This document shows, in pieces, positions 8,932 through 49,880 of a DNA stretch of 57,097 bases (the stretch's first letter is position 1; each line of letters opens with the position of its first letter). The DNA comes from an uncultured Bacillota bacterium (GTDB lineage Bacteria > Bacillota > Clostridia > Christensenellales > UBA1242), in contig CASFPO010000049.1 in NCBI GenBank assembly GCA_949296805.1, forward strand, positions 1-57,097. The letters are read 5' to 3'. A program made the position numbers and the translations under genes. The notes beneath the pieces are model-generated. The model worked only from the letters and a program-made list of their open reading frames with translations. It did no database searches and was not told the origin of the DNA.

Positions 8932-8967
8932 GAAAAGCAATCCGAATCGCTGGGTTGCTCTTTTTTG
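8932..8967 (+). terminator. Terminator after tRNA-Leu
   Basis: AGCAATCC...GGGTTGCT stem followed by a T run. Confidence 0.7.
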
Positions 8968-8968
8968 T

Positions 8969-9358
8969 ATAAGAAAACCACAAGCAGTGCTTGTGGTCCC
9001 AAAAGGTTTCTAGCTATGGACATCAAAAACCTCCTATGTTAAAGTATAGTTGAAGTTTTGCTGCTTTAACTAAAAACATAGGAGGTTTTTGTATATGAAC
9101 TTAGATATAAGTAGTTTAGCACATACAAAGTATAATTGCAAGTATCATATAGTATTTGCTCCAAAATATAGGAGACAATAATATATGGAAAGATTAAAAA
9201 GGATATAGGTGTAATGATTAGAAAATTATGCCAATATGAAGGAGCAAAGATAATAAAGGTCGAACAAGCGGCAGAACTTCGCCAAACATTTAAGATTATG
9301 CTGCAACAGGTCCTAAAAGGGCAGCGCCAACTACCAGTTAAGCTGGTAGTTATGATTT
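8969..9358 (+). mobile_element. tnpA: Internally deleted IS200/IS605-family remnant (tnpA pseudogene)
   Basis: From the ATG at 9095 it reads MNLDISSLAHTKYNCKYHIVFAPKYRRQ* and continues out of frame (YGKIKKDIG...LC), the Y1 transposase N-terminus. RBS-sequestering inverted repeat AAAAACCTCCTATGTT/AACATAGGAGGTTTTT; hairpins at both ends. Confidence 0.85.
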
Positions 9359-28178: not shown

Positions 28179-31100
28179 TTATCTACTTATTGAGGCTGTA
28201 TATCCATTTTCAACACTCTGAATTCTTAAGTAATATCCATCGCCACAGCTGATTGTAGTTGCAGTTATAGGAGCTGTGCTAATGACCGTTGCAGTTCCCG
28301 AGCCAACTGACGCATAGTTTGTACCAAGGTCAGCCGAAGGTGGCACAGGAGTTGTCACTACAAGAGCGTTGCCAGCGGTATCTACAAGATAGTTGATGGT
28401 TCCAGAAGAAAGCGAGTATACAATTCCAGCAAAGTATTGAGCTATGCTTGCAATTTCTGGCTTTGTAAATGTTCCATTATTGTAGCAATAGCTAAGGCTT
28501 CCGTTTGAGCTTATTGTTGCCACACCAGTAAAGTACACCGCACATCCAACAGTTGAGGTCAAAGTGAAGTTACCTTCATTGCCAACCTTATTGAGCGTTG
28601 AATTGTTGACAATTACAATTCCGCTTGCATAAACGTTGATATTGCTTTGTCTTACTTGAAGAGCAACATCTCCATAATTAAAGCAATTTTCGATCAATCC
28701 GTTATAGCCATCTCTACTAGAGTTTACTAATGCAATTCCACCATAGACAAAATTGATGTTTACCTGTGGCATATTATATGAAAGGTCAGCATAATTATTG
28801 CAATTTGTTATCTGCCCATAATTAATACTTACTATTCCACCCACAAAGATGTCATTTGAGTAACCAGTGCCCTGCAGACTTGTTATAGTCATTGTGCGAG
28901 TAGTCACATTGTCAATTTGTCCATAGTTATAAAGTGCTAGCGGGCTTATTAGCACGTCACTACCATCAAGCGAGGTAATGTTAAGCTCCATATTCAACTC
29001 CAAATCCTTCACTGTTGCACTTGGAGACAAACTTTCAAACAAAGCAAAATATTTAGTAAAGTAAAGACCGCTAAGTCCTGGCACTGAAGTAGAATAAGTT
29101 TCATTCATGGCTATAAGATCGCTGATTTGCAAAGTTATACTATAGCCATCTCCATCAAGCGAGCCATAGAATTGACTAATAAACAAAGCGTCATCTACAA
29201 TAAGTCTATCTTGTTCTAATATAATATCTGACGTTAAGATAAAATAGAAAGCTTGTTGTAGCCTATTTCTACGTGCAATATTGTAAAAATCCTCAGCATC
29301 AGCAATTCTGTAAGGATCACTTTCGCTTCCATTTCCTCCCGAGAATAGATCAAACTCAATTCCGCCCTCAGGCATATTGAATTGAATGGAATCACTATAC
29401 AGATACAATGTTTCAGCGGTTATTTGAGCAGTTCTGCGAGCTTTTAATGAGAAGGAAGTGATCATACCTCTTTCTTGAGGCATATAGAAATTGTCTGTTG
29501 TGCTTGTAGTTATTGTATAAAGATTGTCTGTTGTAACCTCAATATAATACTCAAAATCATTTATATTGTTGCCGTTATTCCACTCCCATGCAAACATATA
29601 GTTTTCGCTATCCCAAATTATATCAACAAGAGCCTCTCCATTTTCCGAAATCATAGTATTTGCAATGTTAAAATGCAGTGTGTCACTATAGAGGATTAAA
29701 AGTCTATTAACTGTACTAGCCTCCTGTCCATCTCGCACTTGAATTCTAAGCTCTGTCATATCATTTGTAATCGTAAAGGTCTTTGAAGAACTATTTCTAT
29801 CTAGAAGTGTAGTGAATGTACCTGCCCCCGTAGTATACTCGATAGCAATTTCATAGAAGGAATTATCTCCTGCTATGGTCACATATCTAAAGTAACTACT
29901 AAAGTCAAGAATTGTTTGTTCTCCATTTAAAGTTATTTGATAGTTACCGTCAAGAGAGGTCATTTTATAGACTGAGTTAATTTCAAGCGATTTTGAAATC
30001 AATCCATTTTCAGTATAGATTTGAACAGTTATATTAAATGGATTAATATTGTTTAACTGTCCTTCATCTAAAGTAAACGCAACTAGCACATAACCTGCAG
30101 TGTAGGAAGATGAGCTTACGCTATACTCATGACTTCCAGTAAGTTCTATCGATTGTGTCCTGCCATTTTGAATATAATTTGCTCTTATTAAAGTTCTTGA
30201 GCTTGCACTTTGATTGTTCTCATCAGTTATAACTTCTCCACCATAGCTTGCGGTTGAAATATAATAGATGATTTTTCCTTCAGCCACGCCGTTATTGTTT
30301 ATGTTCTCATTTGGACTTAAGATTGGCGCCGATGTCCTTGTAATAGGCTGATTGCTTGAACCAAGTTGCAAGGAAGCTCCCCTTAAAATATGAGTAGTCT
30401 GGTCGCTGTAATAGACACTATCTGCTATCAAATAGCTTTCGTTTTCAAGCGTTGTAATACTTCTAACATCATCACTTGCTTGACCTGCTAACGCAACAAC
30501 TTCCACTGAATAATAGTCATAATCTTGACTGATATGATCTGCACTGAGGAAATTGTTTACAGTGTAATAAATTTCTCTATCTATATAGCTATATGAAGTA
30601 TCTAATTCATTTTCGCCAATCACTTGATTATAATAATTTACGGTCACTTGATAGAGGATACTGCCTTGCTCAATATTGTCAGGATTTTGCACAATATCCC
30701 ATTTGATATTACCTTGATCTATATATGGCAAGCCATCAATAATATTTAGCATTCTTGCTGAAATCTGAGATTCCTCCGATGAGAAAAGCATTGTTGCAGA
30801 CGTCAGTCCTGTATTTTCGTTTTCAACATAGAAAGTCCAAATATAGTCCGCTCCGTGGCTAGTCTGCCCTATACTTTCACTTGCTACAATTTGTCCGCTA
30901 TTTCCTAACAAATAGGTAAAGAAAGTATCGGCAATAAGCTCAGATGGATAGGAAATCTCTCCACTCTCCACATCAATAGAACCGACTCTGTAGGTTATAA
31001 AACTGTTAGCTCCTCTTCTAAGGATGTTTTCATAATAATAGCCATCTCCCTGTTGTCTAGATATGTTATTTGCTAGCAAGTAATGCAAGGATTGATCTTG

Positions 31101-40075: not shown

Positions 40076-40282
40076 ATACTGGCTCCCCACAAATCTTTGA
40101 CCCAATAAAAATACTTGAAATTACTAAATTTGCAAAGTTAAATCGTGGCAAGTATATTGCACAAAAATATAAAAGTCAAGAAATTCTCACAAAACAACAA
40201 AAACTTTGGGGCATTTTTACAATTCGCTATGTTTATGATAAAAGAAAATTTTGTGAATTGAGATTTGTAAAGCACTCTTCTT

Positions 40283-40963
40283 ATGAAAAGGCGGTGCAAT
40301 ATGACTAGACAACAATATATTTGGAGACAGCAAGAAAAACACAAAGAATATGAAAACATAAACGCATTGGTTCACCAAATGGTAAAGTTAAGTGGATTTG
40401 TGTTAGAGCCTATCATTTTAGGTGAAGTCTTTTTTAGATATTTACAACAACAAAAAGCAAGTGATAAGAATAAACAGACGGCACGCAATATGTCAAAAGT
40501 TTTTTCTATACTCTGTCAATATAACTTTATCAATGGAAAACTTTATTACAATGAAAATGGTTTTTCAGTTTCTCCAAGTGTTTGGCAAAAACATTGTATA
40601 GGTAGGGACGCACTTGATACAAGCATAAAAAAACTTAAAGCTATGAATTTGATTGATTTTGATAACTCTTGCTATTACGGCAAAAAAGAAAGACGAAAAA
40701 GATTTTACACAGTCAATAGAAACGGACTTGAATATCTTTTACACCAAGCAGAGAAAATCAAAGGCGAAGAACACGAGCAAGATTTACAACTTTACGAAGA
40801 TTTTTTAGACTACACAAATCGCAAAGACTTTGACACTGCTTACCAAGAAGAACAAGCATTCAAAGAATATAAAGCACAAAGAAAATGCGGTGCTATCAAA
40901 GTTGCACCAAAAGAAATAAAAAGTTTTCAAAAAAATTTAGAGAATTTAGAAGAAATCATATAG
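40283..40963 (+). CDS. Winged-helix protein, putative replication initiator of the element
   Basis: IGRDALDTSIKKLKAMNLI...KRFYTVN wHTH pattern; followed by ~480 nt of non-coding DNA with hairpins and short repeats. Alternative start at 40301. Confidence 0.5.
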   Translation: MKRRCNMTRQQYIWRQQEKHKEYENINALVHQMVKLSGFVLEPIILGEVFFRYLQQQKASDKNKQTARNMSKVFSILCQYNFINGKLYYNENGFSVSPSVWQKHCIGRDALDTSIKKLKAMNLIDFDNSCYYGKKERRKRFYTVNRNGLEYLLHQAEKIKGEEHEQDLQLYEDFLDYTNRKDFDTAYQEEQAFKEYKAQRKCGAIKVAPKEIKSFQKNLENLEEII

Positions 40964-41451
40964 TTGCCGAAATGAATCCCGTATACTTTAATACTAAAGG
41001 GTACGATTGCTTGATGAAAGCCGAAGAAAAGAAGTTGAAAAGTTGTAAAAGAAATTAGTTGAAGAATAGAGAAAGTCAGCCACCCCGCAGGTTTTGGGTG
41101 GTTTTTTCTATATGTTATCTATATGGTGTCTATATATTGTGGGTATATAGTTTTATCAATTTTAACTCCCAAAATACATACAAAACACAAAGTTTTATCC
41201 TTTTATACATAAGTGTATGCAACTATTGCCGTTATACAGATTTTATAAGTTTTACGAAATGCTTGTAAATTTTTTCATTTTGTGCTATCATAAAGTTGCG
41301 ACACAATTGAATAGTTTTACCCAAAGAGTGAAAGATTTTTTTGCTATTCATACAAATGCTTCCACACCCTTTGGGTTCAATTGTGTCGCAGCAATTGGAA
41401 GGTTTGTTTTTGGATAGACTGTGCCTTCCGTTTGGGAGGCACTTTTATTTT

Positions 41452-42105
41452 ATGGAAAAGAAAGGTTTTGTTTATATTTTAACCAACCCTTGTTTCAAAG
41501 AAAATTGGGTAAAGATTGGACAAACAGACAATTTAGATAGAAGAATTTGGGAACTTTCTCAAGCAACAGGAATTCCCTTGCCTTTTGAAATGTATGCAGT
41601 ATTAAAAACTACTAAATATAAACAAGCAGAATATATGATACATAGACTTATTGGTAAACTTGCACCCGATAAACGCATAAACCCAAAACGAGAATTTTTC
41701 AACATTGAACCAGAAGATGCGGTTTCAATTATGAAAGATATTGCAAGCCTTATTGATGACGCTGAAATTATTTACAATGAAAAAATAACTATTGAAAAAA
41801 CATCAAAACAACACGGAAAGAAAGCCCCACCAAAAACATTTTATAGTATGGGCATAAAAAATGGAGACATAATAGAATTTACACTTGACCCACAATATAA
41901 GGCAACGGTGTGTGGAGAGCGAACTGTAATGTTTGAAAACAAAGAATACTTTTTAACCCCACTTGGAATTATACTCTTGCAAAGAGTTGGACATAGCGAA
42001 GAACAAGCAAGGCAACTTGGAAGCGGTTTTGGAGTTTTCAAATTTGATAATCAAGACAACAACCTTTATGACCGTTGGGAAAGGTTAAACGGAAATAAAT
42101 ATTAA
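41452..42105 (+). CDS. GIY-YIG (T5orf172-like) domain protein with a C-terminal beta domain
   Basis: GFVYILTN, VKIGQT, RIWEL, TGIPLPF, KREFF motifs; start at 41452 behind GGAGG. Confidence 0.85.
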   Translation: MEKKGFVYILTNPCFKENWVKIGQTDNLDRRIWELSQATGIPLPFEMYAVLKTTKYKQAEYMIHRLIGKLAPDKRINPKREFFNIEPEDAVSIMKDIASLIDDAEIIYNEKITIEKTSKQHGKKAPPKTFYSMGIKNGDIIEFTLDPQYKATVCGERTVMFENKEYFLTPLGIILLQRVGHSEEQARQLGSGFGVFKFDNQDNNLYDRWERLNGNKY

Positions 42106-42295
42106 GCAATTTACCGCCTGCCCTCGTTGTTTATCGATTGCTTTCTTGTTTTATCTCAACTCAATAAAATATACCACAAAGAGAAAAAGACACTGCCAAG
42201 CAAAGATTTAAGAAAACAAAAAAGTTTAGGTTGCAAGGCTTTACAGCCGTATTTTGCTTTAATATAATCAAACTAAATTAAAAGGAGAAAAGTTT

Positions 42296-42511
42296 ATGAA
42301 ATGGATAAAATGGCTTAATCTCGCTCAAACAATTTTACTAGTTATTGTTGGCATTTTACTTGTTAATTTTAAGACTATCACAGAAGCGGGAATGATAGTA
42401 TTTGAAATATTCGTTATATTATCTCTTGTTTTGTCTATTGTAATGCTTGTTATGCACTTTAAGAAAAACAAAAAGCAAAAGAAAGAAGAAAAACCGAGCG
42501 AAGAAAAATAG
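42296..42511 (+). CDS. Small two-TM membrane protein
   Basis: AAGGAG RBS, TTGCAA/TATAAT-like promoter upstream, two TM helices and a charged tail. Confidence 0.7.
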   Translation: MKWIKWLNLAQTILLVIVGILLVNFKTITEAGMIVFEIFVILSLVLSIVMLVMHFKKNKKQKKEEKPSEEK

Positions 42512-42970: not shown

Positions 42971-44768
42971 AATATTAAACGATAAACAAAAATATGTTGT
43001 GGGTTATTGCCGTTTTAGTAGTGATAATCAAGGAATAGAAAGCATAGAAGGACAACAAAAGGAAATTTTAAGATATGTAGAGAATAATGGTTTGATACTT
43101 TTAAAATGGTATGTTGATGAAGCAAAAACAGGAACATCAGCAAATAGGAAATCATTTTTACAAATGATTGAAGATGGTAAAAAACAAGAATTTGGACAAG
43201 TCCTTGTTTATCAATTAGATAGATTTGCAAGAGATGAAGAAGATAAGGTTATCCATTTTGTAAGTTTAAGAAAAAATGGTATTAAAGTAGTTTCTGTAAC
43301 TGAACATTTTGACGACACGCCAGAAGGAAAGCTAATGGAAGCAGTTGTGAGTGGTATCGCCGCATATTATTCAAGAGATTTGGCGAGAAAGACACTGCGA
43401 GGTATGAAACTTAATGCTGAAAAAGGATTTAGTAATGGTGGCACAACTCCATATGGTTATAAACTTGTCCCAAGACTTGACGAAAACAATAAACCTATGT
43501 TCCACAAAAAAGGTCACGCGTTACACAATATAGCAATCAACCCAGAACAAGCAGAAGCAGTTAAAATTATGTTTGATATGACAATAAAAGGTTATACAAG
43601 GCACGAAATTATAGAGCAACTAACCAAACAAGGTTTTAGAAAAGAAAACGGCGAAAAGATAACAGGAACTTTTATTGACCATATATTAAGAAATGAAAGA
43701 TATACGGGTGAATATTGGTATTACTATAACAAAAAGAACATAAATTTTAACCCAGAAAGTGATGATTATAGAATTCGTATCACAAAAGGTTTTGACCCTA
43801 TTATTTCAAAAGAAGATTTTAATACTGTTCAAAAAATCTTGGAAACAAGAAGACACAAAACACCAACAAATGCACAAGAAGATTACTTATTAACTGGCAA
43901 AATTATATGTGGAGAATGTGGTTCAAATTATAACGGAATGCGATGTAAAAGACACGGAAGACCCTATGTTTATTATCAATGCACTGACCAACATAGTTAT
44001 AAAAACGGACAAAAAAGAGAAAAATATTGCCATAATAACACAATTCGTAGAGATGAGATTGAAAAACTTGTTATAGATAAAATTAAAGAAATTGTCTTTA
44101 CTGATAATCTAGTTGAACAAGTTTTAGATAACTATAACAAATTTGCCATTGAAGAAAGTAAAAATAATTCTATGATTGAAATGCTTGAAAACAAAATAAA
44201 AGACTATGATAATCAAATGAAAAACATTACTAATGCTATCGGTCAAAATACTGCAAGTTATTCAATACAAGTGCTACTTGATAGATTACACGAACTTGAA
44301 CAAAATAAAAAACAAACAACAGAATTACTTGAAAAAGAAACGATTGGAAATAATTCTTTAACCACAACCGTAAAAGAAATATTAAAAGTTTATCAGAAAG
44401 CTCAAAAAATTCTTGATGGAGATGATATTCCAGCAAAACGAGCTATTATAAACAACTTTCTTAATAAAGTAGTTGTCAAACAGGATACAGTTGAAGTTTA
44501 CCTTAATTTATTGCCTTTAACTTGCTCTGCTTTCCTTGATATTGACATATTAAAAAATAACTTATTTATGGGAGATTTAAGTGTTGGAGATTGGGATTTT
44601 GCTGAATACCCAGATTACCCAATTACAACATTAAAACAATATAGGGAGTATAAAGAAAAACCCAGCACAAGATTTATTCCATCTTTTACTGGGCTAAATA
44701 CAATTGGCTCCCCAGGTAGGATTCGAACCTACGGCCTATCGGTTAACAGCCGAGCGCTCCACCACTGA
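42957..44768 (+). CDS. Large serine recombinase
   Basis: YCRFSSDNQ catalytic motif, LDRFAR, PYGY, recombinase domain, LLTGKIICGECG zinc ribbon, coiled coil. The last 20 codons run antisense through tRNA-Asn. Confidence 0.95.
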   Translation: MKKNRILNDKQKYVVGYCRFSSDNQGIESIEGQQKEILRYVENNGLILLKWYVDEAKTGTSANRKSFLQMIEDGKKQEFGQVLVYQLDRFARDEEDKVIHFVSLRKNGIKVVSVTEHFDDTPEGKLMEAVVSGIAAYYSRDLARKTLRGMKLNAEKGFSNGGTTPYGYKLVPRLDENNKPMFHKKGHALHNIAINPEQAEAVKIMFDMTIKGYTRHEIIEQLTKQGFRKENGEKITGTFIDHILRNERYTGEYWYYYNKKNINFNPESDDYRIRITKGFDPIISKEDFNTVQKILETRRHKTPTNAQEDYLLTGKIICGECGSNYNGMRCKRHGRPYVYYQCTDQHSYKNGQKREKYCHNNTIRRDEIEKLVIDKIKEIVFTDNLVEQVLDNYNKFAIEESKNNSMIEMLENKIKDYDNQMKNITNAIGQNTASYSIQVLLDRLHELEQNKKQTTELLEKETIGNNSLTTTVKEILKVYQKAQKILDGDDIPAKRAIINNFLNKVVVKQDTVEVYLNLLPLTCSAFLDIDILKNNLFMGDLSVGDWDFAEYPDYPITTLKQYREYKEKPSTRFIPSFTGLNTIGSPGRIRTYGLSVNSRALHH

Positions 44769-44779
44769 GCTACTGGGGA
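44705..44779 (-). tRNA. tRNA-Asn(GTT)
   Basis: Minus strand reads TCCCCAGTAGCTCAGTGG...GGCT-GTT-AACCG...GGTTCGAATCC...TGGGGAGCCA. Confidence 0.96.
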
Positions 44780-47850: not shown

Positions 47851-48639
47851 TTATTTTATAATTTTAGGGTCTATTCCATTAATACCATATTTACTATATT
47901 CTATAGCAGGGACATTACCTAAGTCTTGCAACATCCTTAATAATTTAAAATAAGTAAATATCAATGGTGAATTTTCTTTATCTGTTATAATATTAAAATT
48001 CGCCAAATAAATTGGTTTATCATAAAATTTAGAAATCTCTGCATTATGTTTTATTTCACATGCATAGCAGGATAGACAGCAAATAAAATCAATTTCTTCA
48101 TTTTTAGATTTTGTAATTTCCGAAATATTCTTTTTTAAATTTTCCTCAACATTACCTACAGCCCATGAGCTTTTATATGTTAAAAGACCGCCAATTATTA
48201 TAGGTGCAGGTTTACCAATTTCATATCCTCTTATTGTATTAATTGGTGCTGATGTTCGAATAAGAGATTTTACACTATTAATTTTATTTTTGCAATAAAT
48301 TAATTGTTCCTTGCTTAAATCTTGTTTTACTTCAAATACAGCATAAACACTTTCTGCAGGAATGTACTTTTGTCCGTTGTTTTCAAATATTTTTGGTGAA
48401 AAGTGAGTATCGTATATAACAATATCCATTTGATCGCTACAATTTCCTTCGCAATCTATTACAAAAGCCTTTTCAGCACAATATCTTTTGGGGAAATTTT
48501 CATTAAACCATTTTCTCCATTCTTCTTCAGTTGCATCTCCTTTTGTCGGAGCATGCTCAAACCCATCATTTAATCCAAAGCTTGCCAGCATTTGGGCTTG
48601 TTTTAATTTAAATAATTCCTTAATGTCAACTTTTCTCAT
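47851..48639 (-). CDS. nucC: CBASS effector endonuclease, NucC-like
   Basis: HAPTKGDATE..W, P.RY, SDQMDIVIYD, YIPAESVYAVFEVKQ, LGNVPAIEY..Y; 7 nt downstream of the CD-NTase. Confidence 0.85.
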   Translation of the reverse strand: MRKVDIKELFKLKQAQMLASFGLNDGFEHAPTKGDATEEEWRKWFNENFPKRYCAEKAFVIDCEGNCSDQMDIVIYDTHFSPKIFENNGQKYIPAESVYAVFEVKQDLSKEQLIYCKNKINSVKSLIRTSAPINTIRGYEIGKPAPIIIGGLLTYKSSWAVGNVEENLKKNISEITKSKNEEIDFICCLSCYACEIKHNAEISKFYDKPIYLANFNIITDKENSPLIFTYFKLLRMLQDLGNVPAIEYSKYGINGIDPKIIK

Positions 48640-48646
48640 TTACTTA

Positions 48647-49489
48647 TTACCATACAATTTTGTTCATAGTTACTTCATTACCATAGTCGTAACTTAAAGA
48701 ATCAATTGCTGCCTTCCTTATATTTTCTTTTTCTGAATATGTCAATGTATCTGCTATATTATTATTAGTATTAGCAGGATCGATAATTCTTCTATAAAGT
48801 ATAGTATCTCTCAATGTTTCAAAAACTTTTTTAACATTATTATAAAGAGATGAAGTTCTTTGATGTTTTAAAACTTCACAAGTTATAATTTCGATTGCAA
48901 TAGATGGCAATTCAAGATTGTGGCAATCTCTCCAAATTTTTAAAACCATCATTTCATCCGTTAATCCACTATTTCTTACCATGTCGATATGCAATTGGAT
49001 GTTTGTTAATGTATTACTATCATTTTTTCTTGAATAAATATTATGGTCATTATAATATCTATAATTTACATATGTAGAGTGATTCACTCTTTTTCCCGGA
49101 GTAACATCAATGCTACACCCATTATATGTAATTCCAATGGAAACATTTTGTTTACGTAAAGAATTTGTGGCGAAGCGTGGCTTTAAAAACGAGTAGAGGT
49201 CTTCATAATATTCCTTTACAGTATGTTGATTGTTTGGATCAGTAATGGATACAAAAATATCAACATCAGACTTGCCTTTAATTGCATCTCCCTTTGCTTT
49301 TGACCCAGATTTCATAGTTTCAATTGTTATACCGTTTCCCCAGTAATAATTTTGTGAATTATATTGTTGTTTCCATTGGTTAATTAGATCACAAAGATAT
49401 CTATAAGATTGTTCTTCATTACGATTGTATTGATAGTTGTTTGATTTTTTGTATAATAAATTTCTCAAATAATCATTTACGGTCTCCAT
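48647..49489 (-). CDS. cGAS/DncV-like nucleotidyltransferase (CD-NTase)
   Basis: SGSKAKGDAIKGKSDVDIF, RKQNVSIG, IDVTPG, PSIAIE, DPANTNNNI motifs; start at 49489 behind AAGGAG. Confidence 0.9.
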   Translation of the reverse strand: METVNDYLRNLLYKKSNNYQYNRNEEQSYRYLCDLINQWKQQYNSQNYYWGNGITIETMKSGSKAKGDAIKGKSDVDIFVSITDPNNQHTVKEYYEDLYSFLKPRFATNSLRKQNVSIGITYNGCSIDVTPGKRVNHSTYVNYRYYNDHNIYSRKNDSNTLTNIQLHIDMVRNSGLTDEMMVLKIWRDCHNLELPSIAIEIITCEVLKHQRTSSLYNNVKKVFETLRDTILYRRIIDPANTNNNIADTLTYSEKENIRKAAIDSLSYDYGNEVTMNKIVW

Positions 49490-49880
49490 ACTTTTCTCCT
49501 TGCCTACCCAATATAAGACATTATAACATATTTTCAAAATTTTTCAATATTCAAAACAAAAAAGAAAAATATTCTTACTAATTTTTGTATCATTTAATTG
49601 TATATCAAACATTAAATGATATTTTAAAAAAGTTATCATTTATTTCATTATAGTAATTTAAAACATGGTTAAAGAGAAAAAATTATTTAAGTTTCTTTTA
49701 GTTTAAATTGACTTTATCTATTTTTAAAATTCTTTAATTAAATCATAAGCATTAATTTTATAAATAAAAAACGTACCAAAGAGCATTTGGTACGTTAAAA
49801 GAATTCATGGCGGCACCAACACTATCCAGATTGAACTAAAATTCTGTAATAATTGTATTTTAAAGATTTTATCTAGATAG

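Follow-up and report, generated by a model that had tools for sequence, protein, structure and literature searches.

A large serine recombinase (LSR) gene in the genome of an uncultured Bacillota bacterium reads through the attachment site of the element that carries it and ends inside a host tRNA gene. What would the same gene encode once the element is excised, and what would the exchanged end of the protein do? The original prediction, made on the 57,097-nucleotide window (the whole stretch of DNA that was analysed), was that excision would swap the C-terminus of the recombinase and couple it to a "rep-like" gene lying behind it. Our analysis extends the first part of this prediction to a family of elements and confines the second part to some of them.

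The element and its insertion site

The decamer TGGCTCCCCA forms both att cores (Table 1), and no other copy of this 10-bp repeat was present on either strand of the 1.12-Mb genome. The two copies bound an element of 4,625 bp at the CCA end of tRNA-Asn, consisting of a winged-helix-like (wHTH) gene, a T5orf172 gene, small ORFs, and one LSR. The right copy is the tRNA-Asn gene's 3' end; no other tRNA-Asn was called in the genome. A terminator hairpin lies immediately outside the left core, as expected for the displaced end of the chromosomal tRNA; since the hairpin is symmetric, it likely acts in both directions and would also stop plus-strand transcription into the element. From the sequence, we infer that crossover would occur at tRNA positions 71/72, within an attP that has inverted arms. 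In the element we found no conjugation gene, and domain and PHROG family searches recognized no directionality factor (RDF) among its other ORFs.

Table 1. Features of the tRNA-Asn element and its borders, by position in the window
Feature	Position	Strand	Remarks
tRNA-Asn terminator hairpin of the host, shifted away by the insertion	40046..40075	-	13-bp stem; z -5.7 / -3.5 on the two strands
Left att core, read as G-S-P	40080..40089	+	inferred crossover dinucleotide TC at 40084-40085
Start-less 72-codon tail frame; conserved basic C-terminal domain	40090..40308	+	8.8 kDa, pI 9.8; would form part of the recombinase in the attP state only
Right arm of predicted attP	40096..40110	+	inverted repeat with 44684-44698, 12/15 complementary
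Shine-Dalgarno-like motif of the wHTH gene	40288..40296	+	within the last tail codons; similar motifs in L063, L064, L066, L079
wHTH gene, 220 aa	40301..40963	+	ATG 40301; 8-nt overlap between start and tail stop
Terminator-like hairpin after the wHTH gene	41070..41109	+	z -2.75; 3/200 shuffles as good; absent from the scan that gave the 42240 promoter
T5orf172/MUG113 (GIY-YIG-type) cargo gene	41452..42105	+	
Sigma-70-like promoter (11/12)	42240..42268	+	upstream of small ORF and recombinase; consensus match only
71-aa hydrophobic ORF, probably a membrane protein	42296..42511	+	
LSR, integrated isoform, 603 aa	42957..44768	+	canonical domains to about residue 525, then acidic linker
Left arm of predicted attP	44684..44698	+	within the recombinase ORF
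Right att core (tRNA 3' end)	44705..44714	+	inferred crossover TC at 44709-44710, equal to tRNA positions 71/72 when counted from CCA backwards
tRNA-Asn(GTT), insertion target	44705..44779	-	N73-CCA restored by the element's copy

The contigs of four runs, all from one study, contained neither an attP (circle) nor an attB (empty-site) joint of the element; contigs drop rare variants. In another run a contig spans 40080-44730 with 7 differences and has other flanks, and in a third run a contig begins at 40080. A search of 30 genomes turned up no relative that has the same host flank with the site empty.

Elsewhere in the window, on the far side of tRNA-Asn and among defense-like genes, a CBASS-like pair on the minus strand (47851-49537) consists of a SMODS nucleotidyltransferase, scoring below the CBASS cyclase cut-offs, and a DUF6602 protein. 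A 242-nt inverted repeat (8961-9202 and 38182-38423) is 81% complementary, with its copies 29 kb apart and the left one following tRNA-Leu. A 3,266-aa probable surface lipoprotein, labelled from its N-terminal sequence, is encoded at 28179-37979 on the minus strand.

The integrated recombinase

The recombinase ORF reads the core as G-S-P at residues 584-586 and then takes 17 antisense-tRNA residues to its end. It contains PF00239 (Resolvase), PF07508 (Recombinase), and PF13408 (Zn-ribbon), all above cut-off, and matches phrog_95. It resembles LSRs in this domain set, in an LSR fold with a coiled coil, and in short att sites with a central dinucleotide and symmetric attP arms, the sites being predicted from sequence. 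The fold was judged on an AF2 model of a relative, P0019. This model (mean pLDDT 80) consists of an LSR body, a disordered region at 402-483, and a folded tail. It matches 9y66, 9dxh, 4kis, phiC31, and Bxb1, and can be aligned with the solved integrases of SPbeta, phiC31, Bxb1, and LI. Solved LSRs cover residues 1 to about 390 (9y66_C with Z 15.2, rmsd 9.3, and 357 aligned), a point which the alignment places at about residue 525 of the window's protein, so that the linker and tail are extra. The model thus predicts that the integrated isoform keeps every canonical LSR domain.

Ahead of the core, the linker measures 41-74 residues and is acidic in 10 elements; in the P0019 model its pLDDT is below 50, and that of the tail is 65-84. 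The C-terminal extensions of the integrated form (6-36 residues in 13 elements) appear as unconserved by-products. A 96%-identical integrase occurs in an entry of an uncultured Christensenella sp. The Ccr recombinases of SCCmec were also considered and rejected, as CcrB scored 133 bits against a cut-off of 900.

A 72-codon frame on the core's other side

To the left of the core the recombinase frame is open for 72 codons (40090-40305) and closes with TAG at 40306-40308. The G-S-P core, the 17 antisense residues, the 72 open codons, and the overlap of their stop with ATG 40301 were all in the original prediction and were all confirmed. As the att site lies inside the integrase gene, the inserted copy would encode an enzyme of 603 residues and the excised circle is predicted to encode one of 658 residues, carrying the 72-residue tail as an extra domain.

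An open frame of this length arose in 107 of 100,000 mononucleotide shuffles and in 602 of 100,000 first-order Markov draws. The codon-usage score of the tail frame is positive (+0.20), whereas those of the other five frames range from -0.06 to -0.55. Its first ten or so codons double as an attP arm.

Structure prediction has the tail folding as a separate unit, set off by an acidic, flexible linker. A segment that forms a strand in the fusion model becomes a helix when the tail is modelled alone, at most a hint that the tail may contact the integrase body. The tail had no match in Pfam, NCBIfam, PDB sequences, the ESM Atlas, or plasmids, and its best PHROG hit was at E 0.099. Fold searches with the tail model (pTM 0.49) returned nothing usable, the best BFVD hit having E 0.73 and the best of 48,161 chains Z 2.3, which in itself does not make the fold a new one. 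A comparison by hhalign spoke against the tail having arisen by duplication of the final helix-strand motif of the integrase itself (probability 0.1, equal to the reversed control), and this origin was rejected.

Conservation of the tail in related elements

A serine recombinase scoring E 1e-40 or better is present in 174 of 400 genomes drawn from the host family, and the top matches, below E 1e-87, form a clade of their own; a wHTH homologue was found in 24 of the 400 and a tail-profile match in 27. In 400 genomes drawn from the order, tail-profile matches numbered 4. Twenty stretches were picked by an integrase or wHTH match; with the window, 13 of them hold both element ends, and the other eight miss one. 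The frame is free of stops from the core on in all 13 (window included), which bears out the expectation that homologous elements keep it open. Five further complete elements, found by tail (L137, L138), by DNA (L154, L155), or by integrase (L141), bring the number to 18. One of these, L141, has an intact integrase and a tail stop 49 codons in, and in L138 the integrase is frameshifted. The 18 elements are kin of roughly eight lineages and do not count as independent trials.

The crossover was also placed by a script that is blind to the frame and scores arm symmetry and shared bases near the tail start. It chose the tRNA-end register (71/72 or its match) in 15 of the 18 elements, and all 15 are in frame with the tail; in L064, L138, and L154 scores were tied and the choice fell elsewhere, and these are in frame only by motif. 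The elements target tRNA-Asn, -Glu, -Ile, -Met, -His, and -Gln. In some, as here, the tRNA lies antisense behind the integrase, and in others it precedes the tail and shares its strand; in both orientations the predicted crossover dinucleotide sits two bases ahead of N73-CCA. The Gln element, whose register is displaced by one base on both sides, still joins in frame. The predicted attP has inverted arms (12/15 in the window's element; 11-12 bp perfect in L062 and in the Glu/Ile clade), and the predicted attB sites have no comparable ones.

Seventeen tails align to that of the window at 19-57% identity, save one 97% twin. Among 38 pairs with pN <0.36, the nine with pN 0.04-0.21 have a dN/dS of 0.10-0.43; distant pairs give 0.43-0.70, and near-identical pairs 0.14-1.15, which is uninformative. 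Mismatches fall 460/399/679 on the three codon positions. The other frames over the tails mostly contain stops, except that one antisense frame is open in 6 of 17, and the 17 tails have no common start codon; host-side starts differ at every locus. The net charge is +2 to +14 in all 38 aligned rows, and conservation is highest at hydrophobic positions (F, L, W). The last residues of the tails differ (QYD, SKE, QHE, QNG, VNY, NLR, QVR), and we take none of them to resemble an ssrA tag. Tail identity tracks integrase identity (Spearman 0.55; 4 of 5000 permutations), although the elements, being kin, are not independent.

Judged from these comparisons, the tail is a conserved protein domain under purifying selection across six tRNA targets and both orientations. 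It is very likely that the isoform switch is real and selected, and the C-terminal swap of the original prediction has thereby become a conserved design, with natural fusions in relatives (see below).

Some side observations concern target choice. The integrases of L073, L075, L076, and L074 are 99-100% identical and sit at different tRNA ends (Glu, Ile-like), which points to relaxed target choice; shared identity around the crossover goes down to 7-8 bp in L073, L075, L076, and L068. A module swap is seen in L079 (G385:C4) and L154 (G784:C1). The wHTH protein of L079 is 95% identical to that of the window and its tail 54%, the last 14 tail residues matching the window's, and the element targets tRNA-Met in the opposite orientation. 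Serine recombinases at a greater distance (23-34% identity; L027-L032, L005) likewise extend antisense into the ends of tRNA-Ser or tRNA-Asp.

In L113, L116, L118, L119, L120, and L123, tails at tRNA ends are orphaned or broken, and the stretch retrieved contains no integrase; these are remnants of decayed elements. No close relatives were seen in viral contigs or, when the window protein was the query, in metagenome contigs.

Natural integrase-tail fusions

An index-free HMM search of 1.84 billion representatives with the tail returned 46 matches, mostly short called ORFs, and word-indexed searches for longer tail-holding proteins returned none. Five natural ORFs run from an integrase or its linker into the tail: P0019 (538 aa), P0031, P0039, P0047, and L112. 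None of the five includes the catalytic domain. Their contigs measure 1.4-41 kb, two of them 1.4-1.6 kb, and could be circles or tandem remnants; the L112 fusion is a 323-codon frame in a decayed remnant, and its junction could be a tandem product.

The downstream wHTH gene

The "rep-like" label of the original prediction found no support. The wHTH gene has no Rep match in Pfam or NCBIfam, its weak winged-helix matches being HTH_36-like neighbours at 0.90 and MarR/ArsR-like ones at E 0.02. In the three relatives tested, which target tRNA-His and tRNA-Glu (L065, L070, L072), a rolling-circle-type Rep (PF23343) is a separate gene, and none was recognized in the window's element. A wHTH homologue in the same genome (L158 5378-5854; L159 5992-7401; G000:C12) is separated by about 4 kb from a tyrosine integrase and has no tail upstream.

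The predicted coupling is plausible for this element, with its 8-nt overlap, and does not hold as a rule. The overlap is found in 6 of 18 loci, and in L154; gaps of 57-92 nt occur in 9 of 18, and another gene or none follows in 3 of 18. The gene also has a Shine-Dalgarno-like motif of its own. In L063, which has the other orientation, a tRNA promoter-like site lies upstream of the wHTH gene with no terminator found, so that wHTH transcription "only when excised" is not general. Coupling of the tail to the wHTH gene is clade-limited. In the window's element, the host hairpin would insulate the wHTH gene while the element is integrated, and a circle transcript could plausibly run from the 42240 promoter-like site via integrase and tail to the hairpin at 41070-41109. 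Excision would then join the wHTH gene to the integrase transcript here, as a local add-on rather than as part of the core design.

Relation to known systems

The layout is already known from Mx8, DsiB, and the rumA ICEs, and the new part is the tail family of the window's element. Like this class of attP-spanning integrases, the recombinase ORF contains the att core, and its longer in-frame excised C-terminus is predicted, with no circle seen. In Mx8, attP lies in the integrase gene, and integration swaps a 112-aa C-terminus for 13 aa, giving a less active integrated form (parts of PMC4701971 and PMC4383910). Mx8 has a phage tyrosine recombinase, whereas here a serine recombinase of a small non-phage element is known from sequence.

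The rumA-targeting streptococcal ICEs have their att site within a serine integrase gene, whose excised form differs in C-terminus and length (the sections available of Ambroset 2016, PMC4701971). According to the same sections they are conjugative, target a protein gene, and exchange 3' ends reciprocally, whereas here the tRNA end is restored and the search of the element gave no conjugation gene.

In Dehalococcoides ssrA islands, dsiB always overlaps attL and may have full function only in the circle (McMurdie 2011, PMC3146451, as far as its accessible text goes). DsiB is likewise an LSR whose 3' end overlaps att at the end of a stable RNA gene, with a variable antisense-derived C-terminus when integrated. 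It differs in its tmRNA target and in a six-gene module with a second recombinase, DsiA, both of which are absent from the window's element, and the accessible text describes no conserved circle-side domain; here, a single recombinase targets tRNA CCA ends of six types in both orientations and has a 57-72-residue tail under selection.

The canonical LSRs (SPbeta, phiC31, Bxb1, LI/A118) share the catalytic, recombinase, zinc-ribbon, and coiled-coil parts, the short core with a central dinucleotide, and the inverted attP arms (excerpts of PMC11722253 and PMC11795197). In these excerpts they exist as a single protein form and depend on a separate RDF for direction, whereas here recombination itself would add or remove an extra domain.

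The original prediction had named a mycobacteriophage repressor as precedent, and the placement of attP inside a gene is indeed shared; the integrases above are closer. In BPs, attP is inside the repressor gene, and integration removes a C-terminal ssrA-like degradation tag (the part of PMC4557955 at hand). In the window's element the split gene is the integrase and the part removed is a domain that is predicted to fold and has no tag-like end; with attP in the integrase gene and variable tail ends, integration-dependent immunity of the BPs type does not apply.

In searches that covered mainly the open literature, we found no account of this tail family or of tRNA-CCA-targeting serine integrases with a swapped domain. 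As stated in 2014 with Islander (available part of PMC4383910), serine integrases were not known to target tRNA genes.

What the tail may do

We favor an Mx8-like switch of state, in which the tailed, circle-encoded enzyme would drive attP x attB integration and the tail-less enzyme would be weaker, or would excise without a separate directionality factor. Our analysis puts the probability that the tailed form favors integration at roughly one half, ahead of an accessory module, a tethered RDF, a crippled enzyme, and chance. Tentatively, and with distinctly less confidence, one gene may supply both the integrating and the excising enzyme and need no separate RDF, its small tail docking on the zinc-ribbon/coiled-coil junction, within a family able to switch among many tRNA CCA ends in both orientations.

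The basic charge of every tail and its predicted folding as a separate unit behind a disordered linker would suit an accessory module for DNA binding, autoregulation, partner recruitment, or stability, which alters level or targeting and leaves direction alone. We regard this as unlikely, as the most conserved positions are the hydrophobic ones, as in a protein-docking surface, and the variable tail ends are unlike a degron.

Somewhat less likely again is that the tail is a tethered RDF, such that the fused enzyme blocks re-integration, favors excision, and keeps the circle, while integration in a new host needs tail-less enzyme from a resident copy or by tail loss. With 8.8 kDa the tail falls inside the 7-9.3 kDa range of small RDFs, which have no common fold (PMC11795197, in part), and an RDF fused to the integrase C-terminus by a flexible linker works (PMC11722253, in part). 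An acidic linker also lies ahead of the core, and no other ORF of the element was recognized as an RDF. A circle with only an excision-biased integrase would, however, integrate poorly, yet the elements are found integrated at six tRNA types, and the tail has no conserved start of its own from which to act in trans from the chromosome.

Another possibility is that there is no switch: the 658-aa form would be the working enzyme, crippled by integration, and excision would rely on tandem neighbours or another copy, as raised for dsiB in what is accessible of McMurdie 2011 (PMC3146451). The unconserved integrated C-termini agree with this, and tandem and decayed junctions are common (L072, L077, L113, L136). 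Because the integrated isoform is predicted to keep all domains of solved, active LSRs and many elements are alone at their site, we consider it improbable, slightly more so than a tethered RDF.

That the open frame reflects chance, a separate small gene, or a DNA-level constraint on attP is very improbable and largely refuted already, for although a host-flank ATG at 40036 opens a 90-codon ORF over the tail here, most database matches are called as stand-alone short proteins, and an antisense frame is open in some tails, this reading is opposed by the 0.1-0.6% chance of the frame, the third-position excess and dN/dS well below 1, the differing host-side starts with no conserved internal one, the frame kept through a register shift, and the natural fusions.

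Significance

The Mx8-like switch bears on how direction is controlled in serine-integrase elements that have no RDF gene. The portions of PMC5704250 available to us state that no RDF has been identified for IMEs and that TndX works in both directions without one. The isoform pair of a split gene offers a two-protein test case for this problem. Annotated integrases of this family are the tail-less isoform that reads through into the tRNA, and the tail is annotated as an orphan ORF, and thus these enzymes may be assayed in the wrong form. Since conserved tRNA ends are its targets, entered at a single predicted position, the family may be useful for integration tools in gut Clostridia.
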